From an uncultured virus (IMG/VR IMGVR_UViG_3300021079_000006) (taxonomy: Duplodnaviria > Heunggongvirae > Uroviricota > Caudoviricetes), in IMG/VR virus record IMGVR_UViG_3300021079_000006, positions 1 through 64,000 of that record: a stretch of DNA of 64,000 nucleotides. One strand, 5' to 3'. The notes beneath the pieces are model-generated. The model saw nothing but the letters and a program-made list of their open reading frames with translations. It was not told the origin of the DNA and did no database searches. Every line of letters starts with the position of its first letter. Positions within the stretch are counted from its first letter, which is position 1. Positions 1-63,268 of the stretch are shown here, piece by piece. The position numbers were made by a program, and so were the translations under genes.

Positions 1-26
1 GGGTAGATAGGTATTCGTTTCATTTA

Positions 27-728
27 TTAAAAAAGTCTGTTTAGCCAGAGCGTCCTGGCTCCAATCGGGTCGATCAGAGGTTTTCCGAGGCGCTCGTTGA
101 CATTATTATGCAGACGCACCGACCAGTCAAACAGACGAGTGTAGTCCGGCGGGTCGGCAGCCAGGAAGGCTTCCAGGTGCGCTTTGCACGGGCACCCGTC
201 AAACGGGAGGTCTCCCATCCAGTCCAGGAGCCAATGGTGCATATACCTAGGTTTCCCTTCGTGCCGGAGCGCGTACAGGTGCAGCTCCGCCCAAAACCTC
301 GGGCCGGCCAGCATGATTTGGCTCTTCCGGCTTTCGCCGCGGTCGTAGATGCGCTCAACCTCGTTGCCGGCGTTGATGACCCATTGGTTATGGGCGTCCC
401 AATCAGTTGAGAATGACATTGCGACCGTTTTCTCGGTCAACATGGCCGCCTGGTGTTGGATATGGTACGGCGCCTTGGGATCGTCGCCAGGCTCCTCGAG
501 CTTGGGATGATCGGTGTCAAATTTGGTGACTTCCTCGTCGGTGATCCCGTCGCGCTTACAAAGCCATGCTTCGACAAGCTCATGCAGGGCCACCAGGAGG
601 GCGCTTTGGTCCTGGCCGCCGTAGTCTGGCGCCGTAATCTTCAGCGCGCCGTCTGGGAGCCATTCCCAGTCGCCGGCTGTAGGATAACGCATGGCCGACG
701 CGTCGATGGTCTTAATCTCAATCCTCAT
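27..728 (-). CDS. Fusion of an N-terminal HExxE metal-binding domain and a C-terminal Erv1/Alr-like sulfhydryl oxidase domain (copy A)
   Basis: LHELVEA motif; C-terminal GPRFWAELH...LPFDGCPCKAH...WSVRLHNNVNERLGKP matches the Erv1/Alr signature (W..LH, redox Cys pair, W...HNxVN.RLGKP). Confidence 0.7.
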   Translation of the reverse strand: MRIEIKTIDASAMRYPTAGDWEWLPDGALKITAPDYGGQDQSALLVALHELVEAWLCKRDGITDEEVTKFDTDHPKLEEPGDDPKAPYHIQHQAAMLTEKTVAMSFSTDWDAHNQWVINAGNEVERIYDRGESRKSQIMLAGPRFWAELHLYALRHEGKPRYMHHWLLDWMGDLPFDGCPCKAHLEAFLAADPPDYTRLFDWSVRLHNNVNERLGKPLIDPIGARTLWLNRLF

Positions 729-1993
729 TCGTTAAACACGCTGAGGTTGAGCTTCTCCATTTCCTTGATCTGCTCTCGCACCTGCTCAATGGCAGAGCTT
801 TTTGACTCGAGGTAGTAACCTTCAACCTGCTCTGCGTTCTCTAAAGCGTGCGCAAACGCGTCTTCCATTGTGTCGCCCAGGCCGATAACAGCGCCTATCT
901 CCGGCAGCCCACAGTCCTGGGGGATGCAATAAAAGCCGTCCTTGTTCTTGTAAACGTTCCGGAGCTTAACAAAATCCCGGATCTCGTCGGGGAATTTGAC
1001 CTTCTGCCAATTCTGGTCCGCCCAGGACGAGTGGAGCATGATCTCGGCGCCATAAATGGCCGTCGGCTCAGGATCAACCACAACGCCGTTCGCTCCGTAC
1101 CACATACACTCTGCCAGGTTGGAATACTGCTCCTGGTAGAGCTCGTTTGGAGGACTCGGAGCCCTGGCGCAGAAATCGATCATGTAGGGATCCATGTCTT
1201 TCCCGATCCGGATCTCGGTCGAGAAAAAGCCGCGGTATCCGTAAGCCTCGAAAACCGGCTTCATCGCCTCATTAAAGCGAGTTAAAGGTTCCGGAAGGTC
1301 GGCGTAGTTTTTGAAGACGGAGGCGAACCCGCAATCCTTGATCTCCAGGCCGGAGATGAGCGTATTCGGAAACTGGCCGTCGATTGTCCAGGCATCTGTC
1401 CCAAACTCAACGCGGTCGGGAAGGTCTTCCTCGACAATAAATTTGAGGTCATGCTTGAGCGGCCCGAGCTTGTACTCGACCTCGTCCAGTTTTGGCTCCA
1501 CCTCTTCATACGAGGGCGCCTTGAATGTTTCAAAAGTGCCGCGGTACTTGTCGATCTTGACGTGAACGTCGTCGTGCTCCTTCAGGAAGGAGCGCAGGTT
1601 GTCCATGCCAGTGATTTCCCAATACTTGCCAACAGGCAGGCCGGTGCGCTCGATAATGCGCTTCATGCCGGCGCGGTCCAGTTCCATTTCCTCGCCCAGG
1701 CGAGAACCCCAGACAACCTTACCCATCCGGTCCAGCATTCGCTGCTCCCATCCAAAATAGATATCGGGGAAGCAGAAGAAATCGACGTCGTCAAAATGCG
1801 GGCCGTAGATGGAATCAACCAGCTCCAGGCCGTCCAACCCCTTGCCGATCCAGGCGGTGTTCAGCTTGGCAAAGGCGCACTCCCAGGGGCAATAATAGTA
1901 AACCTTTTTGAAGGTCTTGCTTAGTTTTAGCGCAAGTTCAACAAACAGGCCGTTGTCTACGACAAGACAGACTACGTCTTTTGGGTCTTTCAT
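725..1993 (-). CDS. ATP-grasp ligase, PurD (phosphoribosylamine-glycine ligase)-like (copy A)
   Basis: ELDRAGMK..G(LP) motif, VHVK, FIVEE, GYRGFFSTE, IDFCAR.PSP; 422 aa is typical of the PurD-like fold. Confidence 0.75.
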   Translation of the reverse strand: MKDPKDVVCLVVDNGLFVELALKLSKTFKKVYYYCPWECAFAKLNTAWIGKGLDGLELVDSIYGPHFDDVDFFCFPDIYFGWEQRMLDRMGKVVWGSRLGEEMELDRAGMKRIIERTGLPVGKYWEITGMDNLRSFLKEHDDVHVKIDKYRGTFETFKAPSYEEVEPKLDEVEYKLGPLKHDLKFIVEEDLPDRVEFGTDAWTIDGQFPNTLISGLEIKDCGFASVFKNYADLPEPLTRFNEAMKPVFEAYGYRGFFSTEIRIGKDMDPYMIDFCARAPSPPNELYQEQYSNLAECMWYGANGVVVDPEPTAIYGAEIMLHSSWADQNWQKVKFPDEIRDFVKLRNVYKNKDGFYCIPQDCGLPEIGAVIGLGDTMEDAFAHALENAEQVEGYYLESKSSAIEQVREQIKEMEKLNLSVFNE

Positions 1994-2259
1994 TTGCAGT
2001 TCCAGCGTTTAAGTGATGCGGCTTTACGGGTTGGGCGACCCTTTTCGTCTTTCATCGGACCGGGATTGCCGCTCATTCTAGCGCAGAATGAAGCCTTTCT
2101 GCCAGCGTCGGCCTTGGTCTTTGGGTGCGGCGCAGGCGCCTTCAAGTTGCTGCCAGTTGCCGCGTTGATTTTGGCTCGGCCCTTGGCTGTTAGCCCGGCG
2201 CCCCGGGAAACAGGAAGCTTATCTCCCTTCGATACAGATAGTTTTGGTGTTTTTGGCAT
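1990..2259 (-). CDS. Small basic phage protein, DUF6321-like
   Basis: GLTAKGRAK..GSNLKAP...RKASFCARMSG...SLKRWNC pattern; K/R-rich. Confidence 0.65.
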   Translation of the reverse strand: MPKTPKLSVSKGDKLPVSRGAGLTAKGRAKINAATGSNLKAPAPHPKTKADAGRKASFCARMSGNPGPMKDEKGRPTRKAASLKRWNCK

Positions 2260-2260
2260 A

Positions 2261-5200
2261 TTATTCTTCGTCTTCTCCTTCAGCTTCTTTTCGCAGTTTT
2301 TCTGCCGCTTTGATTGCTTTTTCTTTTTCCATCAATTGCTTCATTAGCCCCTTATTGGGAGACTTAACGCCAGTGAGGTTTGCCTCATCGGCCTCGGACA
2401 AGAGTCGCACTGTTTCCCCTTTACGATCCACTTGGAACAAACCTCCAGCTTGGATGATGTCCAAAGAAAACTTGGCGGCGTCAGCGTAGTCCGCTGGCTC
2501 TGCTCCGCTCGTTGCCGCCCCGTACTTGCCAAACAATTCCTTCTCGTTAAACCACAGGGCAGCCTGCATATCGGCAATGGTAACAACAATCCCGGCTTGA
2601 GCAAGCCTAGCCTGAGCCTGCTCCATCGTTGTCTGCTGAAACGCCCGCTCGTTACTGGCCCGAGGTGCGCCAAGCGGCGTTGTGCGATCCTGCACCCAAT
2701 TCTTGGCGGCTCTTCGTAATTCGGTTTTTCCCTTGAAGCTGCCAGTTCTGAATACTTTTTCAAGGTGCTCCGCAAACTCAAGCATCGCGCCGCTGTCTTC
2801 TAGTAATTTGTGGAATTCTTTTTTCGACCATCTGGGCGCGTCTTCTCCGTAAAGGTAGGGCTCTTCAACTCCTTTTTTAATGAGCACTCGGTCGGTATAT
2901 TCCTTGCCTTTTTTGAGCGCCTGATTTCTGTTGTATTCCTCAATCAACGAGTCTTGAAACCGCTCAAATTGATGCCCTTCCTTGAGAGGATCATACTTAA
3001 ATGAGCGACCAAGAATTCGATTCCACGTTCTGGTATACCAAAGGTCGGCGGTTAGCGTTGAGTAGTCGCCGTGGAGGTTATTAATGAAAGATCCGATCTT
3101 TGGCCCAAAGACCATAAACCCGGTCACCATTTGATTTTTGCCGCCCTCAACAGACAGCGGCTCCCCGTTGTAATACAGGGAGGTGTCTTGCTTCAGATTC
3201 TTGTTCCAATTTGCAACAGTGTCCGTTTTGAACAAAAGGGCTCGGAGCTGACTTGGGGTATGCCTTGTCAGCAACTCGTGCAATTTCAGTATGTTGTTTT
3301 CAATCGCGGCAGTTTTATCGCCGAATGTGCCATGCAGTGCGGTGACAATTTCTGGAAGGGTTTTGCCATTTTCTAACATTAGCGTTACCCGAGTTGCCAT
3401 TTTGCCATTCTCGAAGACGTCGTTGCCCTGAGACGCAATCCCGAGAACCGCATCGAAAACAAGGCTCTTGTCTGCGTCGTGCTGGGGAGACCCAACCTCG
3501 AGCCACGGAAAGAGTTGCGAGTACATTCCCTTCATCCGCTTCAGGGCCGCGTCGTACCATCCAATTGCGTTTGGAGACTTTGGATTCAGCGCGGCCCTCG
3601 CCATGTGCTGCTGAACCTCGTCGGCCACAACTGACGAAATGATATCCATCGCCCTCGGGCTATAGTCTCCGGGCAGGATTACCCCATCACTGGCCGCTCG
3701 ATTCTGCAACGCATGAATCATGTCCGGGACGGCTGTCTCCCGCTTGCCTGCAAGCGTGTACGTTGACCTCACGGGCAGGATTTCGGTTCCTGCCAACAGC
3801 GGACTGGCGCTCCGGGCCATTGGGTCTACCGGGTACAGCTTGTCCTTTATGTACTTGGCGTCGGAGTCACTGAGTCCGTACCGCTTGGCGTAGAGGGCTG
3901 GGTCGAAGATGTAGCCTTGCGCGGCTGCTGCCTTGGCGTAGTCGATAAGAAGGCTATCGATACTTCGTTGTAGTAAGGACTGTCCACCGGAAGTGGCTTG
4001 AAGCCAAACCGGGAGAACTCTCTGGTTGTCTCTTCCCTTGAATATTTTTTCAGTTTCATAAAGCTCTGAGGCTACAATTGTTTCGTATGATTGATCGATT
4101 GATGCTGATTTTTGGATTTCACTGAGCTTGCTGGCAAAGTCCTCGGTCCCAAAGTTGAGTGCCTTGATGCCCTTGCCGTCCGTTGTCGTAGAAACGTCTA
4201 CGCCAACTTCTCTCGCTTTGTCAAAAGCCAACTTCAACTGGTCGTCGGTGAGCTTTGTAGAATGGATCAGGTATGCTGCCTGAGTGCCTTCTTTAAGGTC
4301 AATTGACGGCTTGTAGGTGATGCCAGCGTCTTGAGCAAAAGCAAGAGTTAGAAGCTGAGTGATTTGCTTTGCCTTGTCAAACGTAAGTTCAGGATGAACC
4401 AAATCAAAAGATGGTTCTACCTTCCCCTGCCACGTTCCTGCAATCGGCCTAATCTCCAGACCATCAAGGCCAAAGAAGTCTTTTAGTATCCCGTTGAAGC
4501 CATCGGATTTCAGAATGTCATGCACTGAGTCTCCAAGCTCTGCCATGCTGCGAATTCCAAGCGGATTGGCGGTGAATGGAGCAGGGGTTGCCTTTAGCGA
4601 CACCTCTTCAAACGACCTGTTTAGCTTTTTGACTTGAGCTTTCCACGCGGCGTCTTCCGGGCTCATGTTCTGCATCTTTTCCGGGAACTGCGAGCGCATC
4701 TCTTCGATCTGGGTGTCGAGCGCGGCAACCTTTTCCGCATAGGCGGCCTTCTTTGCTTCAAATTCCGCCGTTTTTTCAGGCTTCTTTGCGTTCTTAGCCG
4801 CCTCGTCTGCCTTGGCAAGCAACTCAAGTTGGCGTTGTTTTTTAAGCTGCAATTCGCCCCATGTTTCAACTGCTGCCTTTTGGCCGGAAACCGTTTTAAG
4901 CTGATCTCTTAGCTCGGATGCCGTTCTGTAGGTGTAACCGTGCTCACCGGGCTTGGCTCCAATCACAACGCTGAACATCCCGCGTTCATCAGTGATGGTT
5001 TTGGGAAGCGGAGCAATTGACGCAAGAGCAGGCAGACGCTCTTCCTCTTTTGGCTCTATTTTTATGCCTTCCAGCGCCCCGGGAATATTTTCGTTGTCCG
5101 GCATAAACCGCACCTGAGCACCTTCAAGGGCTCCCGAGGCGCTGGGGTCGGTTAGGAATGGTTTAATTTCGTCGTATTTTTCACGACTGATGGAGCCATT

Positions 5201-8200
5201 CACCATTTTAGTAAACAGCTTTCGATTAAACGCCTTGATGTCATTGGCATCCGATGCATTTGCATAACGCATTGGCACATCGATGACAAAAATGGCCTCC
5301 TTTCCATCGGGGCCAAGCCCCGAAACCACATTTCCTTCGTGGGCATCTCGCAAAAATGTTTTTGCCTTTGGATTGTAGAATTCAAAAAGATTGCCTCTTA
5401 CTATCCTGAAAAAGTTTCTTTGATTTAAATATGAATCAATTTGGTTAATTGATAACGGGTCTAAAATTTTGACGTAAGGCTGCTCCGTGACAACATACGC
5501 ACCGGGATCAGATCCCGTTACCCTTCCAGTAACAAGGTCTGAAAAATTTCCCTGAACATTGGCTTCCGATTCCTTTGCTTGATCGTGGATTCCCTTAACG
5601 GTGATTTTTGTTTCAGGGAAAAACTCATTGTGCAGTCGAATTCGGTCGAAATAATCACCCCAGTTTTCTTCAAACATGGGAATATTTGTCCGCTTTTCAA
5701 CTTTGCCATTTTCATTTCCAAGAATGACTTGATGCTCGGCCCCTGATTTATACCCCGACGCCCTCCACCTCTCGAGAAAGTCCCGATGATCCAAAAGCGC
5801 CCCGTGCTGGCGTGCTGCATCAACTAGACGGGTGTCTTGCGCTCGCTTTGCTGCCTCTGACGCACGGCGACTTTCAGTTTCTCCTCGAACCTGTTCTGAT
5901 TCTGAATCCTTTCCTCTAACGGAACGCTCGAAAACACTTCCGAGATTCTCACTAGGTGCTCTCGACCCTTGTTTGTTTTGGCTGCTTCCTGCTCTACTAA
6001 CCTCTCCCTCTCTGCTCTGTCTGGAATTAAGTATTCGTTCATATTCTTCTTTTTCGGCAAAATCGCCAGATTCTTTAGGATTACCATCAGGCATAAATCG
6101 AGCCTGACCGCCTTCCACAGAGGAGCGCATCTCGGGAGTAATGGCGACTTTCCAGATTTTGGGATTTTCTCCAATCTCTACAACTTCTCCACCTTCTCCG
6201 CGTCCCCGGTTGTTAAGCGCAACAACTGCGTGAGAACGGTTGGTGAACGTCATTGTTGGAGCGATATTTGGATTTCCTTGAATGACGTACTCTTTCTTGC
6301 CTTCAACCTCACCCGTTTCAACTTTAGCACCCCATTGCTTGACGTACTTGCCAATTTCATTTGGTAGGATTTTGTCGTAAAAGCCTGTCATGCCTTCGCC
6401 GCCAATATCAAGGTCTAATCCGTCAGCTTTTGCGTATGCCGTAACCGGATCTGATTGAGAATTGAGGTCAGCAATAAGCTTTTCTGCAAGTGGCTTCCCT
6501 ATTGTGTCAGCTACCTCCTGAGCAGACAGTCCGGGTTTATTTATTACTGATACAGGAAGGTTTGATCCATCTGTGTTTTGGTATGCACTGACATGATACT
6601 TTCCGTCACCGTCATTTATTAGGTCAATGGCTGAGACATGTTTACTTAGGGAATACCGATCAGCTTGCGCTTCTCCTCCGGTCCAGCCAATCCAATTCTT
6701 GCCGTCAGCAACAGCTTTTTGAAGTGCGTGCTTGAATAGTTGAATGGGCCAATCTTTGCGGAATGGTGCGTCGGCAACGCCGTCTTGACGCATTGCTCCT
6801 GCGTTCATTAAGGCTGTCCATTCCTTGCGCTCTTCAGGTGTTGCCGCTTGCCCTTTTGCTTCAATTTCACGCACCCTATTATAATCGCGAAGTTGTTCAT
6901 TTTTGTACCCTCTTTTCCTAGCCGCCTGATGCAGATCAGATTGCAACTCTTCAATCAGCCTGCCAGTTCCAAAGTCTTGAGTGCGCATATGCGCAACATA
7001 GTTTGGAACGTCTGGAAAGTGGCTTGAGCGAAACTCTCCAACTCCAACAACATCGCTTTCTCCCCTGCCATCAATTCTGGCTTGATCTAATGTGTCATAA
7101 GTGCCTTGTTCTCCATCAATAAATTCAACATCAAAAGATCCATCGTTTAATTTTTTAAATGAAGCAATTGGGTCAATTTCTGTTTTAGACGGCATTCTAA
7201 GAACAACCTCTTCGTAGTTTGTGCCGCCGGGAAGCTTGTATTTGGAGTATTGCGTCTCGTCTTCTCCGTACTCAGAATCGATTTGGTTGGTCTCAGAAAC
7301 GAACTCTTCCGCTTCTGGTCTACTCATCCCAAACATTTCCATTGCAGATTTCTCTGCTTCCTCAATTGTGTTAAATTTTGCAGCGCCTCCCCACTCTTCA
7401 GCTTCAGAGTAGAACTCGCCTTCAAAGGACTTTGCTTCTCGCATCCTCTGCGTCTCAAACTTTGCAACGTAACCGTCTTTCAAGAACTGCTTAACGTCAT
7501 CTTTCGTGACATATCCTTTCTCCGCCTGCGCTGCGTCAATAAACTGATTGATGCCGCTCCATTTCATTTCGTCAGGCTTCACGCCACTACCCTTCTGCGG
7601 GTCCAGAATGCCCCTTATTTGCTCCGCACTGGCCCGATTAGGCATCTTGTTTAATAGAACCCGTCCAGCCTTGCTGTAGAACCCGGGGGCGACCTTTGTA
7701 GGGTCTTCCTCACGCTCTGGCATGAAGCGAATGCCTGACGGGATTTTGCTAGATGCCCACATGCTCCCGCCTTGCGGATCTGGTCTGCCAGTTTCCGTAT
7801 CAAATAATTTTTCTCTTCGTAATGTAGCCTGTTTTGATATTGGCTCTCCGTATAGTTTTGTTGCACCAATGCTTTGAGCATATTTTGCAATTTCTCGGTA
7901 CAAAGCTTCTCCGTATCCTTGTTTTTCAAACCCGGAAGAATTGGCAGACAGCACCACCTTCAGGAGCTCTGGGTCATACGGATCTCTAGTGACAGTTGCG
8001 CTAGCCGCAACCTTGTTAGACATTTCCGGGTAAATGTAAATGTGCGTGTCTGGGTCTTCTTCAATTTCCTCAACTCTAGATTTGTATTTTGGCAACCTTG
8101 CCTTCATTACGTTCAGCTCTTCTTGAGTTGGTACGCGACGGTATTCATCTTCCAATTTCTCAGGTATAAACCGGACCTGCGCTTCTGCTGGCTGAACCGT

Positions 8201-11200
8201 TGCCTTGATTTCACCAGTGCCTTTTGGGTCGTACTTAGCAGAGACTGATCCCAAACCTTTTAGGATACTACCACCGAGCGCAGGACGCTGTTCTTCTTTA
8301 GCCTCCTGTTCGGGCATAAACCGGGCCTTGTACGGGATCGGGTACTTATACTCCGTGTTTGCGTTCTCTTCGGCAGCAGTGTGCGAATCAAGGCGGAATG
8401 ATTTGATGATCTGGTCAAAGCTAGACTGTTTATCGAGCTTGCGTTCGGATCGGCTAAACTTGTTCCGGTCTAGGTCTGGAATAGACTCAACGTCGGGCAC
8501 ATTTGGATTTGGTGCGCCGAGCATCTTTTCGTAAATGGTTCGCTTGAGCTTTGCAACATTTGGGTCTGCATCGAGTCCCTGCCAGCCCGGGACACTTGCG
8601 TCGGGGTTCGCAAGGTTCGGAAGCAGCACCGTTCTAAACTCGTTCCAAAATTTTTGTGTGTCGCCGCCCCAAGGCTCAAACACTCCCTTGGCATATTTCT
8701 CATAAAGCCCAACCTTCCTACGAAGGTCGCTAATATCCCAAGCAGTTGTGTAAAAATTGCCAGCCTTTGAGAGGTGCAATTGCAATGGGACGATCTGCCG
8801 AATCTTTGGAGAAAACGCCTGATAGTTGCCTTTGTCATTCAACCGGGAGGCGTAATCGATATCAAGCACCGTCCCGTCGCCCCGAGTCATTAGGTCGTCG
8901 TACTTAAACAACAGTTCCTTCATTGAGGCTGGAACAATACTTTCAGGAAGTGCAGCAATTGCCGCACGCTGCGCTGGAGTCATTTTTCCAGTGTAGTGCA
9001 GGTCTTCATCATCTTTTCCCTGCCCGCCTTTGATCGCCCGGAACCGTCCCAGCTCAGATGGATCTCCAGCGTTATCGATGGCATCACGGACCATTTGCAC
9101 CCGGCGCTTAATATGCGCTACGGTTTCCTTGTTTTTGCGTTCTTTTGGCTTCCCGGTGGCCTCGTCGTAAGCAATCTGACGTTCTACTTGTACTCGCCCA
9201 CCGACCGGGACTTCGAGTCCAACTAATTCAGGATGTAATTCTCCAAATCCCCGTTCCTTGTTTGGAACATTATCCCCAGTCGTATCGTCTTGGTGATAAA
9301 TCCAACTACCTTCAGATGCGTTGTTGTCAGTTAGGTTAACCGTCTGCACTACCTTACCATCTGCGTCCGTAACTACAGCCACTGGAATCGTCTCAAATTT
9401 CCCTGTGTCCTTAAAATACTTGTTAAGCAACTCTTTTGAGTTTTTTACGTCTTTTGGCGTAATGGGCGCAGCCACCGCTTCTCCCGGCTCTGCGTCAGTA
9501 AAGTCGCCGTCGTACTTCTTCATCTCCCGCTCGACGTTGCGTATCGCACGCATTACCTCAGGGCTGTACGTTGCGCCAACAAGCCCAGAAGTCCACTGTT
9601 TGTACACCGCTGGCCCTGCAATTGCGTACAAGTGATTCAACGCAGATTTGACGTTGTTGCTACTGACACGAGAAGCCAACCAGTTAATTCCTCGCTGCGC
9701 TGGAGACTCTGGGTCGCCAAAGAACCTTCCTGCGTGAGCTTCTGCGAGAGTTTCCTCCCGCATCAATTCAACAATCTTGTTCTTGTTAAAGTCGTTTGCC
9801 GCTTCATCCCAAACTCCAGCGGCTTCAGCGTAATCCTGAACTTGTTCTGCTGTCTTTCCTTCTAAATATTTTTTGTAAAATTTGCCAAACAGATCATCCC
9901 GGGACATTCCGGGCTCCGCAGGAGTGATTTGTCGCACATTGCCATTTTCATCAACAGCCTCTGTGCCGAATATTTTGTTGAACAAAGGTGCGATCCGCTT
10001 GCGGTATTCGTCCTTGCCAAACAAGCCGTGCCCAACAACTTCGTGAGCAAGGACGTTTGAGATAGCCTCCCCAGAAAGCTCTGCCTTTTTTAAAGCGTTT
10101 TCAACATTCACAAACACCGTATCTTTGGCAGGGTCCATCGTAAACCCGTCCTTGGCGGTGCCTTTCCCAATCATAATGCCGTCAGCGGTTGGATTCTTTT
10201 CTAACGCCTGCTCAATAGTCATTGGTGCTCCAACCCCATTGAAATTAGGGTTTTCCGTAATCATCTTGTCGATAATTTGGCTAGATGTAAGCAACTCAAT
10301 GTTCATGTTGCTGTTAGGAGTCAGCACCCCGTTTATGAGGTTTGACACTTTCCCTAGCGACAATTTAATGCCATCCTCGAACGCTTGCCGGGCTTCCGGG
10401 GGCGCAACTATGTTTTCCTGATGGAGTCGATAAGCAAACTCGTAATCTGCTTTGGCCTTAGCCGCTTCAGGTGTATTTGCCCCGTTCACCATTTCGGCAA
10501 AATGCGTTTTCTGAGCCCGATCAAGGCGTTTTTCAGACTGCTTGATGACCTTGTCCCAGTTCAAATTTGTGACATTTTCTCGAGATTCTGGGCTTAACCC
10601 AAGCATAACCCTTTGAGCCTGTCGCATCTCTGCGTCTCGGTTCATTTTGTTGCGAATCGGATCATTCCCTACTAATCCTCCGAGAACCTGCCCGTGAATA
10701 AATCCATAGGTCGCAAACTCAGCCCACATTTGTGCAAACTCTTGAGCGTCCTTGTCTTCAAGTACTCCCATTGCAACCATCATTGGCAGCATTGACACGT
10801 TGTGTTGCACAAAGACGTTTGCGTTTTTTTCAATAAAATCCAACGCTTTGCCGCCACCAGCTTTTTGCGACCAGTTCAAAAATCGTTGCACCTCAGGAGA
10901 TGCTGATTCCATTTTTTCTAACGCCTCAAAGCGGCCCAATTCAGCGCCGGATAACCTTCCAGCTTTAAGTAGCTGCTGCCCAAGGCGAGGCGCAGCCGCA
11001 ATCGCCTTACCAGCAAGCTGAATTCCAAGCCCAGTTCCTGCGCCTTTTAACGCCCCGGCCAGCGGATCATCAGACGCCAATGCACCAGCGCCAGCGCCAA
11101 GTAGAGTCGACCCGGCATATTTTACAGGTTTTGGAAGGCTTTCAAAGGCTGTTTTAGACCGATCAATGGTGTCTGCAATGTTGCCAAGTGGCTTTTCGAG

Positions 11201-12667
11201 CCACCCGGGCTGCTCTCGGGCAATTGCCTCCGCTTCACGCTGCGCTTGCAGTGCCGCGCTATCAGCGGCGTACATAACATTGCGAGCCTCACCAGTCTTT
11301 CCAGCCGCTCTCAACCCTCGACCTATTTGCTGACCTAACATGCTCAAATCTCGCACAACTGCCCCGCCCAACCCAAACACGTTTAATGGCGATGTCATGG
11401 CAATTGCGCCAACTTGTTCAGGGTCTTCCCGTAGACGATTGGCTTCTTTTATTTGAGCTTGCACCCCAGTTTCAGCGGCTGCTTCTGCTTGCAATCGACG
11501 GTTAGCCCTCGCTGCTTCAATATTGCCTCCAAATCCAAAAACAGCGTCTTCTGCTGGGGGCATCAACTTTTCAACAACATCAACCCAGTATTTTTTAACG
11601 GCAGGATCTTGCCACAGGTCATCAATTGTTCTGGCCAAAACAGCGGGATTTTTTTCCCTCTGCATGTGGTCGATATACTTTGCATTCATCCGAGTTGCAA
11701 AGTTCTTCCTAGCTTGATCCATTGCTGGAGCAGCCGCAGCTTCACGCAATGCAGCTTCTTGCTCCATAGAGATGGCAGGAGCAATTGATGGGTCTGCTAG
11801 AGTCCCTTCCGCAGTGGCTTTAGCAATGCCAACCTTAGCCTTGTCCCAAAGCATAGCTCTACCTTCAGAAAAATCCTTTGTTGCCTTTAAAAGGTCTTCT
11901 CTAGCCATCAAAAGGGCATCGCCAAACACCCGAGCGGACCGATACGTTTTGTCTCGGAGCGACAATTCAGCGTCTCGGATTTGCTGTTCGTTTAGTCCCT
12001 TTTTTTGCTCTTCAGTGAGCGTTTTGCCTTTCCCGAAATCTTCAGGGCTACCGACATACACTGCGCCTGTAAGAGCATCCTTTGCTAGCCTGCCAGCGCC
12101 AGCAGCAAGAGGAGGCAAAGACGCCAACATTCCAACCCCGGCCTTCCCTGCGTCTGCAATTAAATCAAACGCACTTGTATCCTTGTTCCACCTGTAATCG
12201 AACAGAGACTGCAACTGCACAGGGTTTTCGGCCATGTTGTACCAAGGAACTGTCTTGTGTAGCTCCTCAAGGTCGTGCGGGTCGGTGATTCCTTTGAACA
12301 CCGTTTCCGTAATCCCCTTGCGGGTGTTAGGATCAGTGATTCCAGCGTATGCATTAAACTTGCCTGTTGGGCCAACCGGGACTGGGGCAAACTGCCCAGA
12401 GCCGAGTGCTCCGCTGCCAATCAACGAAGACTGTTCTGGAGGCGCAGTGCTGCCGACCATTTCGGGACGAAACATCTCGCCGCCACCAGACAGCGTGCCA
12501 CCAGAAGTCTGCATTCCGGGGGATTCCCCCTTGAATGCAGCTAGAATTTCTTCATCAGAAATGCCTTTTGCCTCTTCCTTGCTGTAAATAGGCTGACTGA
12601 CAGATGGCTGTTCTCCCTTAAACGCAGCCAGAATTTCTTCGTCTGAAATCTTTGGAGTTTCAGCCAT
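2261..12667 (-). CDS. Giant polyvalent internal virion/ejection protein (zincin-like peptidase, GNAT, LPD-type domain, polyvalent kinase-like domain, C-terminal glycosylase-like domain)
   Basis: 3468-aa ORF after the ejection genes; HEVVGH..EETLAE; FEKQGYGEALY; IEELQSDLHQ/GFYDKILP; GAEHQV..EQPYV..DAHEGNV..FVID; GWY..GPKIGSF..TADLWY..QAALW. Confidence 0.75.
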   Translation of the reverse strand: MAETPKISDEEILAAFKGEQPSVSQPIYSKEEAKGISDEEILAAFKGESPGMQTSGGTLSGGGEMFRPEMVGSTAPPEQSSLIGSGALGSGQFAPVPVGPTGKFNAYAGITDPNTRKGITETVFKGITDPHDLEELHKTVPWYNMAENPVQLQSLFDYRWNKDTSAFDLIADAGKAGVGMLASLPPLAAGAGRLAKDALTGAVYVGSPEDFGKGKTLTEEQKKGLNEQQIRDAELSLRDKTYRSARVFGDALLMAREDLLKATKDFSEGRAMLWDKAKVGIAKATAEGTLADPSIAPAISMEQEAALREAAAAPAMDQARKNFATRMNAKYIDHMQREKNPAVLARTIDDLWQDPAVKKYWVDVVEKLMPPAEDAVFGFGGNIEAARANRRLQAEAAAETGVQAQIKEANRLREDPEQVGAIAMTSPLNVFGLGGAVVRDLSMLGQQIGRGLRAAGKTGEARNVMYAADSAALQAQREAEAIAREQPGWLEKPLGNIADTIDRSKTAFESLPKPVKYAGSTLLGAGAGALASDDPLAGALKGAGTGLGIQLAGKAIAAAPRLGQQLLKAGRLSGAELGRFEALEKMESASPEVQRFLNWSQKAGGGKALDFIEKNANVFVQHNVSMLPMMVAMGVLEDKDAQEFAQMWAEFATYGFIHGQVLGGLVGNDPIRNKMNRDAEMRQAQRVMLGLSPESRENVTNLNWDKVIKQSEKRLDRAQKTHFAEMVNGANTPEAAKAKADYEFAYRLHQENIVAPPEARQAFEDGIKLSLGKVSNLINGVLTPNSNMNIELLTSSQIIDKMITENPNFNGVGAPMTIEQALEKNPTADGIMIGKGTAKDGFTMDPAKDTVFVNVENALKKAELSGEAISNVLAHEVVGHGLFGKDEYRKRIAPLFNKIFGTEAVDENGNVRQITPAEPGMSRDDLFGKFYKKYLEGKTAEQVQDYAEAAGVWDEAANDFNKNKIVELMREETLAEAHAGRFFGDPESPAQRGINWLASRVSSNNVKSALNHLYAIAGPAVYKQWTSGLVGATYSPEVMRAIRNVEREMKKYDGDFTDAEPGEAVAAPITPKDVKNSKELLNKYFKDTGKFETIPVAVVTDADGKVVQTVNLTDNNASEGSWIYHQDDTTGDNVPNKERGFGELHPELVGLEVPVGGRVQVERQIAYDEATGKPKERKNKETVAHIKRRVQMVRDAIDNAGDPSELGRFRAIKGGQGKDDEDLHYTGKMTPAQRAAIAALPESIVPASMKELLFKYDDLMTRGDGTVLDIDYASRLNDKGNYQAFSPKIRQIVPLQLHLSKAGNFYTTAWDISDLRRKVGLYEKYAKGVFEPWGGDTQKFWNEFRTVLLPNLANPDASVPGWQGLDADPNVAKLKRTIYEKMLGAPNPNVPDVESIPDLDRNKFSRSERKLDKQSSFDQIIKSFRLDSHTAAEENANTEYKYPIPYKARFMPEQEAKEEQRPALGGSILKGLGSVSAKYDPKGTGEIKATVQPAEAQVRFIPEKLEDEYRRVPTQEELNVMKARLPKYKSRVEEIEEDPDTHIYIYPEMSNKVAASATVTRDPYDPELLKVVLSANSSGFEKQGYGEALYREIAKYAQSIGATKLYGEPISKQATLRREKLFDTETGRPDPQGGSMWASSKIPSGIRFMPEREEDPTKVAPGFYSKAGRVLLNKMPNRASAEQIRGILDPQKGSGVKPDEMKWSGINQFIDAAQAEKGYVTKDDVKQFLKDGYVAKFETQRMREAKSFEGEFYSEAEEWGGAAKFNTIEEAEKSAMEMFGMSRPEAEEFVSETNQIDSEYGEDETQYSKYKLPGGTNYEEVVLRMPSKTEIDPIASFKKLNDGSFDVEFIDGEQGTYDTLDQARIDGRGESDVVGVGEFRSSHFPDVPNYVAHMRTQDFGTGRLIEELQSDLHQAARKRGYKNEQLRDYNRVREIEAKGQAATPEERKEWTALMNAGAMRQDGVADAPFRKDWPIQLFKHALQKAVADGKNWIGWTGGEAQADRYSLSKHVSAIDLINDGDGKYHVSAYQNTDGSNLPVSVINKPGLSAQEVADTIGKPLAEKLIADLNSQSDPVTAYAKADGLDLDIGGEGMTGFYDKILPNEIGKYVKQWGAKVETGEVEGKKEYVIQGNPNIAPTMTFTNRSHAVVALNNRGRGEGGEVVEIGENPKIWKVAITPEMRSSVEGGQARFMPDGNPKESGDFAEKEEYERILNSRQSREGEVSRAGSSQNKQGSRAPSENLGSVFERSVRGKDSESEQVRGETESRRASEAAKRAQDTRLVDAARQHGALLDHRDFLERWRASGYKSGAEHQVILGNENGKVEKRTNIPMFEENWGDYFDRIRLHNEFFPETKITVKGIHDQAKESEANVQGNFSDLVTGRVTGSDPGAYVVTEQPYVKILDPLSINQIDSYLNQRNFFRIVRGNLFEFYNPKAKTFLRDAHEGNVVSGLGPDGKEAIFVIDVPMRYANASDANDIKAFNRKLFTKMVNGSISREKYDEIKPFLTDPSASGALEGAQVRFMPDNENIPGALEGIKIEPKEEERLPALASIAPLPKTITDERGMFSVVIGAKPGEHGYTYRTASELRDQLKTVSGQKAAVETWGELQLKKQRQLELLAKADEAAKNAKKPEKTAEFEAKKAAYAEKVAALDTQIEEMRSQFPEKMQNMSPEDAAWKAQVKKLNRSFEEVSLKATPAPFTANPLGIRSMAELGDSVHDILKSDGFNGILKDFFGLDGLEIRPIAGTWQGKVEPSFDLVHPELTFDKAKQITQLLTLAFAQDAGITYKPSIDLKEGTQAAYLIHSTKLTDDQLKLAFDKAREVGVDVSTTTDGKGIKALNFGTEDFASKLSEIQKSASIDQSYETIVASELYETEKIFKGRDNQRVLPVWLQATSGGQSLLQRSIDSLLIDYAKAAAAQGYIFDPALYAKRYGLSDSDAKYIKDKLYPVDPMARSASPLLAGTEILPVRSTYTLAGKRETAVPDMIHALQNRAASDGVILPGDYSPRAMDIISSVVADEVQQHMARAALNPKSPNAIGWYDAALKRMKGMYSQLFPWLEVGSPQHDADKSLVFDAVLGIASQGNDVFENGKMATRVTLMLENGKTLPEIVTALHGTFGDKTAAIENNILKLHELLTRHTPSQLRALLFKTDTVANWNKNLKQDTSLYYNGEPLSVEGGKNQMVTGFMVFGPKIGSFINNLHGDYSTLTADLWYTRTWNRILGRSFKYDPLKEGHQFERFQDSLIEEYNRNQALKKGKEYTDRVLIKKGVEEPYLYGEDAPRWSKKEFHKLLEDSGAMLEFAEHLEKVFRTGSFKGKTELRRAAKNWVQDRTTPLGAPRASNERAFQQTTMEQAQARLAQAGIVVTIADMQAALWFNEKELFGKYGAATSGAEPADYADAAKFSLDIIQAGGLFQVDRKGETVRLLSEADEANLTGVKSPNKGLMKQLMEKEKAIKAAEKLRKEAEGEDEE

Positions 12668-12670
12668 AAA

Positions 12671-14743: not shown

Positions 14744-14744
14744 A

Positions 14745-15257: not shown

Positions 15258-15259
15258 AA

Positions 15260-15817: not shown

Positions 15818-15818
15818 A

Positions 15819-16301: not shown

Positions 16302-16307
16302 AATTTG

Positions 16308-17536: not shown

Positions 17537-17782
17537 TTATGGGAATAATTGAACACTTACCGTTTCGTCAGCGATAGAAATGTTCTTGGTTGCTTCGTAA
17601 GCTATGACTTGCGCCCGTTGTGTGGAATTTCCGCAAACTACGCACGGGACACACCCAGAGCCAACGCCACTTATTAGCGGAATACTGGAATACAAGGGGA
17701 TAATTCCATCATTGCCATATGGAGAGACAAATTTGTTTGGAAAAACCGAAACCGCCGTTGATGCCGATTTAATGGATGGCAT
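17537..17782 (-). CDS. Small Cys-containing hypothetical protein (CVPCVVC)
   Basis: Fills the gap with stop-1nt-ATG coupling on both sides. Confidence 0.55.
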   Translation of the reverse strand: MPSIKSASTAVSVFPNKFVSPYGNDGIIPLYSSIPLISGVGSGCVPCVVCGNSTQRAQVIAYEATKNISIADETVSVQLFP

Positions 17783-17783
17783 A

Positions 17784-19925
17784 TTATGCGATTGGAGGGT
17801 GAAGCGCCCTATATTGTTGCGCAGCCAACTGCGCTTCTGCTGTTGCTTTTGCAAGCGCAATAGCGTCAGCGTCAGCCTGTGAAATGTACGACGTTGCTGT
17901 AGCGGTGGCTGTGGCAACGGCATTTCCGCGCCTCCCCGAAATGGCACCGACTTGAACGGAGGCTGTTTTTGTAGCGGTCCAAACCATCCTTTGGCTGTTT
18001 GGATTTTCTTGCGGGGCAGGAGCCAGTGAAACCAGTGTTGTTGCCCCCGTTTCGCCTAAAACACAGAATTGCGTCTCGTTGAAAGTTACCTGACCAGTAG
18101 AGCGGTCTTGGAACGGATCTTGATACATGCGAAGGGCCTCGACACCAAGGCCGCCGCACCACTCGATTAAAAGCGAAAACGCCTTGTCAATATTAAGCAA
18201 AAAGTTGCTTTCGCAGCTCTTTTCCGTTGAATTTGGTTGCACGGATTCCGTGATAAGCCTGCGGTGTTGAGTTTGAAGAAACCCAAATTTATCAATGTTA
18301 TTTGATTCGTAGCTTGTCTCGTACTCGTAACCTTCCGTGGCGGCTAAGATGCGAGTGCTTAAAATAGGTTGGTAAGTACCCTTGCTGCCTCTGTAACTAA
18401 TCTTAACGTCAACAGTCCCTGCAATTTGACCGCAATCAACTTCAGCGTAGGCCAACTGCTTTAAGTCCATGCTGTCTCCGAGCAGCGCTGTTTCCATCTG
18501 GCAGTAAATTCGATTCACCAAAGTGGTTGTGCTGCCATCCTCGTTGATATTTAGGTAAGTGTCATACCTTTCTGGCACAAATGCTTCCCAAAGGTGGATG
18601 TGCGAGCCGTCGTTTGTACGCCCGTAATCTACCGAAAACGCAAAGATCCTCGGCGCACTCGTGACAACCCCAGAAACCCACTCAATAGGGCGAATCCCTG
18701 TCCAGACTCCGGCCCAAGCAGGGTTCCTAGCTTGGTTCCACTCGGCGGCGGCGGCATAATCGAGCATCATCGTTACCGAGTTGACGGGCTCAAGGTAAGG
18801 TATTGAGCAAAGTAGGTAATTTTCAAACGAGGCAGAACAAATGCCAGACAAGTTGGACGACATAAGCCGTTTGGCCTTTGCCATCTCCACATCCTTGTAC
18901 AGCACCTGCGACGAAAGATAACTGCTAGCGGCAACGTCCGCGCTTACAAGCCCACCTTGCGAGTACCACCACATCATCCCGGCTTGGAACGCAATGCTTT
19001 TCCCAGCAATGCACCCCACAGTGGGGTAGAGGACGTTCTGAAAGTTCGCGGTAGTCGCCCACTGCGCTCGGTCAAGAATCCCAGACGCTAGCGAATAGGT
19101 TGAACGGTCAGTCCAGACGTAGAGTCGAGAGTCGTTATTCTGCCCGACATAGTCCTGCATGGCGGTAATTCTACGCGGGACCGAAAAATCACCTCTACCC
19201 GATCCAATCGTGCGTTCAATCCAACTGAGGGGATCGCCAAGATCTGACGCTGAAATAATATTTCCAGACGCAACCCAAAGGCGGTTTCCGGAAAATGCCA
19301 TCCAATAGCCGATTGGAATGTCTTTTAATTGCGTTCCAGTTTGGTCTGAGCCATCCCAAACACCAGCATATCGCACTCCATCTTGAACAACGATAATTCG
19401 ATGCGCGGGCGTGATTGAGAAGTCGCCGCCAGACGAGATGGTTGCTGTCTTGGTAGCAGTTACGAAATTGACCCGTTCAACATTAGGGTCTAAAGAGATG
19501 CCTGCCAGCAGGTAGTCGTTCCAGTTCTTGGGCTGAACCAGCGGGAATGGGCAGTAATAAACCTTGCCATCGACGGAAAACACAATGTAGGGCAACTCGG
19601 ACTCCTCAGACTGACCACCTTCAGGCGTGTAGATTGTAGCGACCTGCGAAATCTCTACACCATAAAGATTTGTGTACGTTGAACTCGCCTTGTACTGCTT
19701 GTTGGAATTAAAAAGTATTCCGCCTTGGAAGTTGCCACTTGGAAGCGAAAGCCGCATGGCAAACCCCGGGCGAGTTTGAACAATACCTCCGCGAACGGTA
19801 ACATTTTGCCCCCATTTAAACTGGTCCTCTGGCAGGGTCCACGGGTTGCGAACTGAGTTAACTCCATGCGTCCACCCAGCGGAAACCTTATTGAGCCGCC
19901 CAGAAGTAATATTTGGGCTTTTCAT
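17784..19925 (-). CDS. Tail nozzle / stabilisation (tail tubular B-like) beta-propeller protein
   Basis: 713 aa; NVTVRGG..TRPG, MAFSGNRLWVA, SDLGDP; positioned after the adaptor. Confidence 0.65.
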   Translation of the reverse strand: MKSPNITSGRLNKVSAGWTHGVNSVRNPWTLPEDQFKWGQNVTVRGGIVQTRPGFAMRLSLPSGNFQGGILFNSNKQYKASSTYTNLYGVEISQVATIYTPEGGQSEESELPYIVFSVDGKVYYCPFPLVQPKNWNDYLLAGISLDPNVERVNFVTATKTATISSGGDFSITPAHRIIVVQDGVRYAGVWDGSDQTGTQLKDIPIGYWMAFSGNRLWVASGNIISASDLGDPLSWIERTIGSGRGDFSVPRRITAMQDYVGQNNDSRLYVWTDRSTYSLASGILDRAQWATTANFQNVLYPTVGCIAGKSIAFQAGMMWWYSQGGLVSADVAASSYLSSQVLYKDVEMAKAKRLMSSNLSGICSASFENYLLCSIPYLEPVNSVTMMLDYAAAAEWNQARNPAWAGVWTGIRPIEWVSGVVTSAPRIFAFSVDYGRTNDGSHIHLWEAFVPERYDTYLNINEDGSTTTLVNRIYCQMETALLGDSMDLKQLAYAEVDCGQIAGTVDVKISYRGSKGTYQPILSTRILAATEGYEYETSYESNNIDKFGFLQTQHRRLITESVQPNSTEKSCESNFLLNIDKAFSLLIEWCGGLGVEALRMYQDPFQDRSTGQVTFNETQFCVLGETGATTLVSLAPAPQENPNSQRMVWTATKTASVQVGAISGRRGNAVATATATATSYISQADADAIALAKATAEAQLAAQQYRALHPPIA

Positions 19926-28656: not shown

Positions 28657-29871
28657 TTAGTAAGTCCCAAATGCGGTTTGAGTGAGTACGTTATCACGAA
28701 CAGACACAGACGTTGTCAAATACAAAGTATTCCCGTCCCATTCTGCGGCGTTGGCTTGAGGAGAAGCCATCAAAGTTGCAGGCGTTTGAAAATAAAACGG
28801 AGCTTGGTTGGCAGAAGCGCCATTTGCCCTAAATGTCTGCGGGCCTGTATATGTATTTGCCCCAAGGCTTTGAACTCCTGTCGCTCCATTATAACCTGTC
28901 CCGCCTTGATACCCGGTTGCCCCCAGCCCGGTAGCTCCCTGAAAACCCGTCGCGCCCAGCCCGGTCGCCCCTTGAAAACCCTGAGTCCCAATACCCGTGC
29001 TTCCTTGAAGGCCCGTCGCGCCCAGCCCAGTCGCTCCTTGAAAACCCTGAGTCCCAATACCCGTGCTTCCTTGAAGGCCCGTCGCGCCCAGCCCAGTCGC
29101 TCCTTGAAATCCAGCACCTGTACTGCCTTGGTATCCTGTCGCGCCCGGTGATCCAATTCCAGTAGCGCCCGTAGCCCCAGCGGGTCCGTTGGCTGGCCCT
29201 GTGGCCCCTTGATAACCCGTAGCGCCCTGAAATCCAGAGCCTGTACTTCCCTGCAATCCTACCCCAGTTGCGCCTTGATAACCAGTTGCACCGACTCCAG
29301 TTGCGCCAATTCCAGTGCTGCCGCGAAGCCCAGTACTGCCTTGATACCCCGTACTTCCGTCGTTGCCAGCAACTCCAATACCTGTGCTGCCCTGATACCC
29401 GGTGCTGCCTTGATAACCTGTTGCTCCAGCGCCAGTTGCGCCAATTCCTGTACTTCCTTGCAACCCTGTACTGCCTTGATACCCGGTACTTCCGTTGTAA
29501 CCAGTTGCGCCTGACCCAGTTGAGCCACGAAGCCCAACCCCGGTCGCCCCTTGGTAGCCTGTACTCCCCTGATACCCAGTCGCCCCGATGATGCTTGAAG
29601 CTTGAAGCGCCCTGATAAAGTAGCACATCAAGCCCTCGCCTTCATTTCGAGGAACCCCAAAAACTGTTGCGCTTTGAGTGGGATCGCAAGTAGTCCAGAC
29701 CACCTTTCCGCTCACTACGGATTTTTGCACCGTCCCGTACAGTGCCTGCGTTAAATTTGAGATCAGGCTCGGGACAGATTCTGCCGATACGCTCGGGTAT
29801 GGAACCTCCGGGGCGCAGGCGGCGTAGTATGCGGAATTTTGCCCAAATGGACTATTGCAATCGCAGCTCAT
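28657..29871 (-). CDS. Collagen-like fibre protein (short)
   Basis: GATG/GSTG/GYQG repeats; C-terminal EWDGN..YLT..FGTY domain. Confidence 0.75.
28870..29590. repeat. Gly-X-Y collagen-like coding repeats, including a near-exact 60-bp tandem unit
   Basis: [26 protein letters not shown] unit repeated around 28950-29110. Confidence 0.85.
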
Positions 29872-35140: not shown

Positions 35141-36355
35141 TTAAAGCCCAGTTGCTGCTGTGCTGCAAGGCAACGGCTGACCGTCAAACGGGCAACGCTT
35201 GTACAGAATTGGCATGACATTTTGCGGACGAATTGGCTGAATTGCACGGCTGATTTGGTAGATGTGCTGACCAAAGTCGCCGTACAAGTTACAGTCATTG
35301 TCGCGGAAGTAAGTCCATTCCAGTTCGCCCATTGCAAGCTGCGGGGCAAATTTAAACGTGCCTTCTCCAGCGTAATTTTCTGGAACCAAACGCTTGAATG
35401 CGTCTCCTGCAACAACAAAGCCTACTTCGTAAGGAGCAGAGACCCAATCAGGGTTCCGGCGCTGGGCAAACCCGTTCGTGACAGCAGTGCTGATGATAGG
35501 ATTTACAAGCACCAGATTGCCGTTGGAATCAAACCCCGTGGATCGAAGCGGTTGCTGGTCAATCCCGAACGCAAAGCCACGATAGCCTTGGAACTGGTAT
35601 CCAGAAATCGAGTCTTCACCGAGTTTGAAGCTGCCAGCGGTTAGGTAGAGCAAGTCTTCCTTCACGTCAGCGTCGTTGCGAATGTTTTCAATCGCATCGG
35701 CAGAGAGCATTACTTGGAAAAACTCACCTTCCTTAGCTGCAAACGGTTCTGCGAGCATTTCTTCACGCAGGAACGTGCCAGCCCGGTACAACGTCTTGAA
35801 GTTCAGCGGACCGTCAGGAAGGGTCTGCGCGAACTTCGTGTTGATGTTCTGCATGTCGCCCGTCAAATTGCTCGTGAACGACGCAGTGGTATTCACGACA
35901 TACTTGACCCCGGACTGGATGAGGTACTGGTAACGGATGTCGGCGTTGATGATCTGAAGAATGGTCTTCTCCAAGCTGACCTGCGCCTGCAAGTACGAAC
36001 CCTTGAACGCCGTCCGGGCCTGCTTAACACAGACGCGAGGGCCAGCGCCACGAAGCGTCTGGAGGCTGAACTGGTACTCCGTAGAACCCACTTGGTCGGG
36101 AGTAGCGCCGACGCCGCAAAGCGTGGTGTCCTCGACAAACGTGGGGCTTGCCAAAGAAGCAGCCGGGACGGCCATTTCTTCGACTACGGAACGCACAACA
36201 TCAGAGACGTTAGGAAGAGTTCCCCCGTCTATGCTGTTTATGTATGGTGACTTACGAGCCAAGACCTTTGCGATCTGGCCGATGATCCTGTTAACATCCT
36301 TGGATGCAAAGTTTTGGATCGTTGCGAGTGGGATACAATTGTTTGTGTCTGCCAT
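35141..36355 (-). CDS. Major capsid protein
   Basis: 404 aa in the head module downstream of the scaffold, with an A/C-rich leader and a downstream hairpin; assignment rests on size and position. Confidence 0.75.
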   Translation of the reverse strand: MADTNNCIPLATIQNFASKDVNRIIGQIAKVLARKSPYINSIDGGTLPNVSDVVRSVVEEMAVPAASLASPTFVEDTTLCGVGATPDQVGSTEYQFSLQTLRGAGPRVCVKQARTAFKGSYLQAQVSLEKTILQIINADIRYQYLIQSGVKYVVNTTASFTSNLTGDMQNINTKFAQTLPDGPLNFKTLYRAGTFLREEMLAEPFAAKEGEFFQVMLSADAIENIRNDADVKEDLLYLTAGSFKLGEDSISGYQFQGYRGFAFGIDQQPLRSTGFDSNGNLVLVNPIISTAVTNGFAQRRNPDWVSAPYEVGFVVAGDAFKRLVPENYAGEGTFKFAPQLAMGELEWTYFRDNDCNLYGDFGQHIYQISRAIQPIRPQNVMPILYKRCPFDGQPLPCSTAATGL

Positions 36356-43642: not shown

Positions 43643-44221
43643 CTATAATGTAACCCAGCAGGCGCTAGGAAGGTTTGTTGCTCGTTGAAGGACCGAGCGG
43701 TCCATGAAGATTGCAGCCCTGTTGTCGTGGCGCATCAGTGTGCAGCCCCCGAGAACGGCGGAAGATTTGGTGTCACGGGCTTGCCGAACCGAGGCGCACA
43801 GCCTGTCTGTGGATGCGATACATGAATTGCAGCCGCCCCTCCAATTGACGTTGTTTGGGCAGGCCCGGCAAATCTGCGCTCGGGTCTCTGCGAGGTCCTC
43901 AGACACGAGAGGATGCGGTTCGTTTGAGTGCAGGATTCCCTTGGCCCACGTCCCAATGTCGTTCATCAGTTCGCCAGTTGCGGTTGTAGCGTTCACGCTT
44001 GTGATCGAAACCATGTCTACACCGTGGCAAAAGTTGGGCCAGTTCGAGCATATGTAGCTCGCCACGTCCCCTTCGATGTCGCCCCCGGGCAGGTGATTCT
44101 CGGCTCGGTACGTCTCCACGGCCTTGAGCAAGTCTGCATGACTATACCCTGCCAGCTTCACGTCGCTCTGGTAGTAGTGCCATCCCCCGGGAGGGACCAT
44201 GCCTATGATTGGTTTTGCCAT
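43643..44221 (-). CDS. Cys-rich hypothetical protein
   Basis: C..(5)..C, CRAC, CNSC and further Cys residues; PPGGW N-terminus. Confidence 0.7.
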   Translation of the reverse strand: MAKPIIGMVPPGGWHYYQSDVKLAGYSHADLLKAVETYRAENHLPGGDIEGDVASYICSNWPNFCHGVDMVSITSVNATTATGELMNDIGTWAKGILHSNEPHPLVSEDLAETRAQICRACPNNVNWRGGCNSCIASTDRLCASVRQARDTKSSAVLGGCTLMRHDNRAAIFMDRSVLQRATNLPSACWVTL

Positions 44222-62557: not shown

Positions 62558-63268
62558 TTAGAACGTCCTAGTCTCCCACAACTTCCGAGCGCCCGCAACA
62601 TCAATGCTTGACTTCCCGATGCGGTCATTCACTGCGTTATGCAGACAAACTCCCCACGCAAAGAATTCACCAAAGTCAGCAGGGTTAAGTGCCATCCATT
62701 CTTTAAGGTGTGCCTCGCACGGGCAACCGTCAAACGGGAGAGAAGCCACCCAAGCCTCAAGCCAGTATCGCATGTCACCAAACGGGATGCATGTGGCATC
62801 AGCCCGGAGGCTATAGAGGTGCAGCTCCGCCCAGTACCGGGCTCCCTGCATAAGAATGCGGCTCTTTTGAAGTTCGCTACGCTGCTCAATCCGTTCAACC
62901 TCATTGCCGACATCAAACACCCATTTGTCGTGCGTTTCCCAGTCCGTGGACGTGGCTATTGCGGCTTCCCGCTCCAATGCCATTGCTACGACGTGCTGAC
63001 GGTGATACGGGGCAGCAGGGTCGTCCCCGGGCTCCTCGAGCTTGGGGTTGTCGGTGTCAAACTTGGTCACCTGCTCATCGGTAATGCCGTCGCGTTTGCA
63101 CAAAAACGCTTCGACCATCTCGTGGATTGCCACGAGCAGGACCGAAACGTCCCGGCCACCGTACTCTGGGACCTTGAGCATTAGTGCTCCATCGGCCAAC
63201 CATTCCCAGTCGCCAGCCGTTGGGTAACGCATTGCGCTGGGGTCTACAGTCTTAATTTCAATCCTCAT
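62558..63268 (-). CDS. HExxE domain + Erv1/Alr-like domain fusion (copy B)
   Basis: Colinear paralogue of 27..728; IHEMVEA, WAELHLY, LPFDGCPCEAH, LHNAVNDRIGK. Confidence 0.7.
   Translation of the reverse strand: MRIEIKTVDPSAMRYPTAGDWEWLADGALMLKVPEYGGRDVSVLLVAIHEMVEAFLCKRDGITDEQVTKFDTDNPKLEEPGDDPAAPYHRQHVVAMALEREAAIATSTDWETHDKWVFDVGNEVERIEQRSELQKSRILMQGARYWAELHLYSLRADATCIPFGDMRYWLEAWVASLPFDGCPCEAHLKEWMALNPADFGEFFAWGVCLHNAVNDRIGKSSIDVAGARKLWETRTF

Follow-up and report, generated by a model that had tools for sequence, protein, structure and literature searches.

A CPC-type Erv/ALR-like domain in a tailed phage family and its mutual exclusion with DUF6171

Why would a tailed bacteriophage carry a sulfhydryl oxidase domain of the Erv/ALR type, and which proteins would it oxidize? 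Flavin enzymes of this kind serve eukaryotes and giant viruses in disulfide formation. The question is raised by the first gene of a 64,000-nucleotide stretch of DNA from an uncultured member of the Caudoviricetes (IMG/VR record IMGVR_UViG_3300021079_000006, positions 1 to 64,000; hereafter the window), whose product, copy A, joins an HExxE domain to an Erv-fold domain. An earlier note on this DNA had recognized the latter and placed it in a phage-encoded cytoplasmic pathway forming disulfides in four cysteine-containing virion proteins. Here, we report that the fold assignment holds and that in related genomes the oxidase gene alternates with a DUF6171-like gene, which suggests that this phage family requires thiols to be oxidized in the cytoplasm and that either gene can serve this need.

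The Erv-fold domain and its cysteine pair

The three motifs on which the assignment was first based, GPRFWAELH, LPFDGCPCKAHL and WSVRLHNNVNERLGKP, are all found in the translation of the open reading frame at 27..728 on the minus strand. They recur in a second copy near the other end of the window (copy B), where they had been described as conserved and are present with substitutions (GARYWAELH, LPFDGCPCEAHL and HNAVNDRIGK). The Pfam model Evr1_Alr (PF04777) matches copies A and B with 33.8 and 29.3 bits, respectively (gathering cut-off 27.6), and the best PDB sequence match of the domain is pB119L of African swine fever virus (ASFV; E 2.8e-8, or 2.9e-15 with a profile of phage Ervs); scores above the cut-off together with this match indicate that the likeness to Erv is more than chance. 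The Erv helical-bundle fold, the conservation of CPC and the tailed-phage context are all supported. No match to it was found in 50,697 GenBank phages, PHROGs or NCBIfam.

The cysteine pair had been read as CPC, and this is indeed the form kept among homologues, occurring in 85 of the 88 aligned sequences (CGC in one). The canonical flavin-proximal CxxC spacing is absent from the phage domain, which by its sequence is a CPC variant and not a canonical member of the Erv/ALR family. The W..LH motif, the histidine after the cysteine pair and HN.VN.R, which we take to be the positions contacting flavin adenine dinucleotide (FAD) in the Erv family, align with pB119L and are kept in 85-88 of the 88 homologues. 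Both active-site cysteines lie where the third helix begins: C181, which the alignment indicates as the flavin-proximal cysteine, opens helix 181-191, and C179 stands just before it, on a loop two residues longer than in pB119L. The oxidase is predicted to be a dimer, the Erv domain scoring 0.76 in homodimer prediction against 0.00 for the control, a score that may mirror solved Erv dimers.

Mutual exclusion with DUF6171

The co-occurrence of Erv with cysteine-rich structural genes that the earlier note had envisaged did not hold, about half of the near-complete relatives lacking Erv and retaining the same cysteines. Relatives were gathered via the capsid gene, taking the best 80 of 145-166 in each search, and in the first set Erv was present in 10 of the 21 records at least 90% complete. 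Gene clustering revealed a protein of ~80 residues with six cysteines that is enriched among Erv-less genomes; a profile of it matches in 10 of 11 Erv-less and 1 of 11 Erv-bearing genomes. This replacement gene is DUF6171-like: its product in G006 scores 26.6 bits against PF19668, just below the cut-off of 27, it matches phrog_13558 with E 8.5e-10, and PF19668 is carried by many of its homologues (12-22% of members in the Atlas clusters). The six cysteines, arranged as CxxC..CxxCxC..C, are invariant in 116/116 homologues. The model of the protein (pLDDT, predicted local distance difference test, 92) gave no Foldseek match at E 0.001, and no PDB sequence match was found.

The same alternation was seen when 14 further near-complete records were examined, two of them picked via Erv and one being the longer contig of the window itself: DUF6171 is present in 6/6 Erv-less and 0/8 Erv-bearing records, save for a weak match (E 0.002) in G043. 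Among 35 near-complete genomes, a count that leaves out this longer contig, Erv alone occurs in 17, DUF6171 alone in 16, both in one (G016) and neither in one (G013, whose contig breaks off within the giant gene, just short of the Erv site). For 21 less complete records the corresponding figures are 17 with Erv only, two with DUF6171 only and two with neither. Of 137 families compared, DUF6171 shows the strongest exclusion (Fisher p 7e-8). The two genes likely do the same job, that is, oxidizing virion cysteines inside the bacterium. As for its position, the DUF6171 gene lies at most 1.4 kb upstream of the terminase in 12/16 DUF6171 genomes, and in G004 and G012 it overlaps the stop of a stand-alone HExxE gene. 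In G016 (1701-2991), a longer DUF6171 directly follows extra cysteine-rich genes of the 17537 family, like a separately acquired cassette.

In other phages, 39 distinct DUF6171 genes were compared, and 19 of these stand immediately behind a gene with at least seven cysteines and 3% cysteine, as against 40 of 574 background genes, a count uncorrected for kinship and made on loci drawn with the query of one clade. Among Ervs of other phages and prophages, 8/18 follow a gene at the same threshold and six more come after genes with 11-19 cysteines. Erv (PF04777) was absent from 18 DUF6171-bearing records, 10 of them near complete, with 6/6 controls detected, and a PF04777 search of the 33 DUF6171 records from which these 18 come gave no match either; DUF6171 was not found in 12 Erv records, mostly fragments and searched with no control. 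Erv carries a fused four-cysteine DUF6171-like module in L251 (independent E 6.5e-6) and probably in L245 (0/500 shuffles); the case of L079 is weak (6/500), and fusions in L252, L077 and L073 proved unsupported (27, 58 and 417 of 500 shuffles, respectively). Other arrangements were also seen: an Erv domain at the C-terminus of a cysteine-containing tail protein (L242:2621-3958, L248:5705-10213), Ervs fused to long glycosyltransferase-like regions (L071:9794-10909, with a weak GT8 match, E 0.034; and, judged by eye, L247:9986-11563 and L251:6763-9924), and three DUF6171 genes in tandem after a 560-residue protein (L662:5364-6133). CxxC Ervs occur in contigs binned as an archaeon and as Elusimicrobiota (L246:1857-2513 and L250:9971-10384), which may be misbinned viral DNA.

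A proposed shared oxidizing step and its alternatives

On balance, we think it probable that the Erv-domain protein is a dimeric FAD oxidase that introduces disulfides into proteins of the virion or its assembly within the host cytoplasm, and that DUF6171 covers this step in the other relatives. The late-expressed oxidase would take electrons from virion-protein thiols, directly or via the 43643 protein (candidates are named by their first window position; Table 1), and these would pass from the dithiol of the substrate or carrier to C179/C181, then to FAD and finally to O2, with C179 on its longer loop meeting the substrate and C181 adjoining the flavin. The data show the fold match, the conservation, the gene position and the mutual exclusion with DUF6171; FAD binding, catalysis, the substrates and the equivalence with DUF6171, which would oxidize in place of Erv in the remaining half of the family, are what we infer. 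Foremost among candidate carriers or substrates would be the 43643 protein, with eight cysteines in 33/33 genomes; next come the N-terminus of the fibre, proteins 17784 and 17537 (the latter with three cysteines in 33/33 genomes) and the capsid. The 43643 protein is distantly DUF6171-like, its DUF6171 score being reached by 0/500 shuffles. A bolder version, possible but in our view doubtful, is that DUF6171 is an unrecognized class of disulfide catalyst, in which four cysteines hold a metal or Fe-S cluster beside a redox CxC, that it replaces the flavin Erv, that the 43643-type protein is the carrier fed by both, and that tailed phages run their own cytoplasmic disulfide pathway.

Neither cysteine counts, compared for the capsid, 43643 and 17537 proteins and for three more among those listed, nor single alignment columns in seven proteins, differ with the presence of Erv; the capsid, 43643, 17537, 17784 and fibre proteins thus do not depend on the Erv gene specifically. 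Portal C187, a seemingly Erv-linked residue (17/17 versus 4/16), was rejected: it follows clade, and the DUF6171 genomes G007, G012, G014 and G039 have it. The cysteine data accordingly do not support the link of the pathway proposed earlier to the four named proteins, while the wider idea of thiol oxidation survives, because every Erv-less genome in which the Erv site is covered has DUF6171. If DUF6171 supplies the same step, the substrate cysteines would not be expected to track Erv.

Several points weigh against such a shared oxidizing step. The cysteines of the capsid (6), 43643 (8), 17537 (3), 17784 (5) and fibre N-terminus (4) are equally conserved in 16 Erv-less and 17 Erv genomes, the CxxC-type clusters of these candidate substrates may bind zinc, and virion disulfides can arise spontaneously in air (PMC13576161). 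Independent contrasts for the exclusion number only 6-7, both genes occur together in G016, and G014 is itself a joined record; furthermore, other genes split with Erv too, for example an endolysin-like family (0/18 versus 12/17), so that host lineage is a confounder. DUF6171, which has no solved relative, could be a zinc ribbon. As to the oxidase itself, FAD is present in the predicted complex without a score of its own, the canonical CxxC is absent, the homologues P0070 and P0087 (2/88) lack both cysteines, and some phage Ervs lack the histidine after the pair.

It is unlikely, in our estimate, that the two genes are interchangeable in a non-structural job, such as removing zinc from, or supplying it to, the cysteine clusters of proteins involved in assembly, or depleting the thioredoxin pool of the host in late infection. 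The same exclusion data fit this, the 43643 and 17537 proteins have a CxxC spacing typical of metal sites, DUF6171 has its CxxC..CxxCxC..C pattern, and one source calls the DUF6171 member P0347 a predicted Zn-ribbon protein; however, in unrelated phages both genes directly follow extracellular-looking cysteine-rich tail genes, as a folding helper would.

Less likely again is that the oxidase is an accessory gene and that the exclusion reflects two host lineages or habitats, each favouring one gene. Erv is in fact absent from 17/35 genomes, nine DUF6171 genomes form one clade, and the endolysin-like family and other genes split in the same way. Nevertheless, the tree of the 35 genomes requires at least six changes, close sisters differ (G014/G018, G039/G042, G012/G015), and independent pairs go in the expected direction in six of seven cases (sign test median p 0.03, range to 0.125). 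No genome with its Erv site covered lacks both genes, and the endolysin-like family, outranked by DUF6171, is missing from 5/17 Erv-less genomes.

We give still less credit to a non-catalytic or metal-binding derivative of Erv, in which CPC cannot form the flavin-proximal disulfide. Cysteine spacing does vary among phage Ervs (CC, CxC and CxxC), the pair is lost in the two homologues mentioned, and CxxC is given as the signature of the family in PMC10598087; against this, both cysteines and the flavin-pocket positions are near invariant, and the redox-active site of Mia40 is itself a CPC (PMC4019985).

The HExxE domain, scored by HExxE alone, the HExxE-plus-EPG pattern being too strict, keeps this motif in 73/88 homologues; the zincin metal motif HExxH is absent, and no Pfam match to the domain was found. 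The ATP-grasp gene is coupled to it (8/8 versus 0/10): in 10/18 Erv genomes the ATP-grasp gene is missing and HExxE has been lost, yet CPC is retained, and four genomes have ATP-grasp with a stand-alone HExxE and no Erv. ATP-grasp therefore partners the HExxE domain, a passenger from the ATP-grasp module, and Erv was rejected as its partner, the two parts being gained and lost independently. Despite the fusion of Erv to HExxE and the overlap of the genes, these distributions largely refute, and make very improbable, a role of Erv within that module, such as oxidizing its product or metal site.

Genomic setting and known systems

Copy B was rejected as a paralogue. The ends of the 66,054-bp contig overlap (175-1995 with 62706-64531 at 68%, and 2250-3531 with 64773-66054 at 91%); the 62.7-kb record L082 carries copy A at 100% and matches the window across 1-5005 and elsewhere only in patches; and the record with L002 (copy A, 100%) has a capsid, L187, only 85% identical to that of the window. 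Hence the contig joins two related phages of ~62 kb, whether by recombination or through chimeric assembly, and the structural genes that the earlier note listed most likely go with copy B.

Table 1. Features of the window discussed in the text
Feature	Position	Strand	Remarks
Copy A gene	27..728	-	233 residues; HExxE domain fused to Erv-fold domain; last gene of virion-gene arm
Erv/ALR-fold domain	30..329	-	residues 134-233; predicted homodimer via helices 143-155 and 166-173
C179-P180-C181 dithiol	186..194	-	C181 aligned with second Cys of Erv CxxC; H184 after
N-terminal HExxE domain	339..728	-	H49-E53 at 570-584; H92, E99; weakly zincin-like; widespread stand-alone viral protein
ATP-grasp (PurD-like) gene	725..1993	-	overlaps copy A start (ATGA); weak TIGR00877 match, E 0.006
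81-residue protein	17537..17782	-	invariant CxxCxxC; candidate substrate or metal site
Virion protein (PHROG 511-like)	17784..19925	-	5 invariant Cys; candidate substrate absent from earlier note's list
Collagen-like tail fibre	28657..29871	-	N-terminal domain with 4 near-invariant Cys; candidate substrate
Putative major capsid protein	35141..36355	-	synteny and high conservation, no family match; 6 near-invariant Cys; candidate substrate
192-residue protein before putative portal	43643..44221	-	8 invariant Cys; C-terminal half weakly DUF6171-like; candidate carrier/substrate
Copy B gene	62558..63268	-	236 residues, 63% identical to copy A; CPC at 62717-62725; from second related phage

The window is a tailed-phage genome, with a small terminase, holin, endolysin, collagen-like fibres and virion-protein matches. 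Family searches gave no firm match for large terminase, portal and capsid (terminase at best E 0.025), so that these names rest on synteny and motifs. In GTDB, 11/14 phage-type Erv loci lie within records named Planctomycetota or Verrucomicrobiota. Other observations concern single genes. Six consecutive putative internal virion genes (2261-17141; 4,960 residues) have zero cysteine, and the putative scaffold (39262-40527, 421 residues) is also cysteine-free, while outer virion proteins keep invariant cysteines. The giant 3,468-residue protein (2261-12667) has a Kinase-PolyVal domain at residues 2274-2464, and a gene with a formylglycine-generating-enzyme-like (FGE-sulfatase) domain (36417-37400), present in 4/22 genomes, stands just before the capsid gene. 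The putative capsid C-terminus (35141-35190), CPFDGQPLPC, resembles LPFDGCPC of the oxidase, probably by chance. Terminase frames of ~960-980 residues, versus ~625 in relatives (G001:57668-60574, G002:23022-25976, G035:49666-52575), may contain an insertion, e.g., an intein.

The open-access literature yielded no paper describing a phage Erv or an Erv/DUF6171 swap, subscription papers and supplements lying outside the search; for DUF6171, no function, structure or paper was found in the open-access literature and databases searched. With a CPC-type Erv in a phage, the Erv family reaches into the viruses of bacteria and offers a test of whether a CxC is functional beside the flavin. For DUF6171, an abundant uncharacterized viral family, the alternation with Erv provides a function that can be tested directly, and the swap may point to a disulfide catalyst of a new kind; both proteins are candidates for making disulfides in the Escherichia coli cytoplasm.

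The closest known system is ASFV pB119L (PDB 3gwl), a compact viral Erv sulfhydryl oxidase, from which the phage Erv differs in having CPC instead of CxxC and a loop two residues longer, in its bacteriophage gene, in its place behind an HExxE domain and, probably, in being replaceable by DUF6171. Unlike cellular Erv1, ALR and Erv2 (3w4y, 3o55 and 1jr8), it has no flanking shuttle cysteines and would be cytoplasmic rather than compartmental, and, in comparison with the Mia40-Erv1 relay, its CPC occupies the oxidase's own flavin-proximal site. DUF6171 (PF19668, phrog_13558) resembles the Erv-replacing gene, and its link to Erv is new here. The poxvirus pathway proceeds in three steps, from E10R to A2.5L to G4L. 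It is a cytoplasmic disulfide pathway in which a virus-encoded oxidase serves virion disulfides (PMC10598087 and PMC13576161). In contrast to it, no thioredoxin-fold carrier was found in the 57 open reading frame translations of the window scanned against Pfam; the candidate for this role is the 43643 protein, with its likeness to DUF6171.
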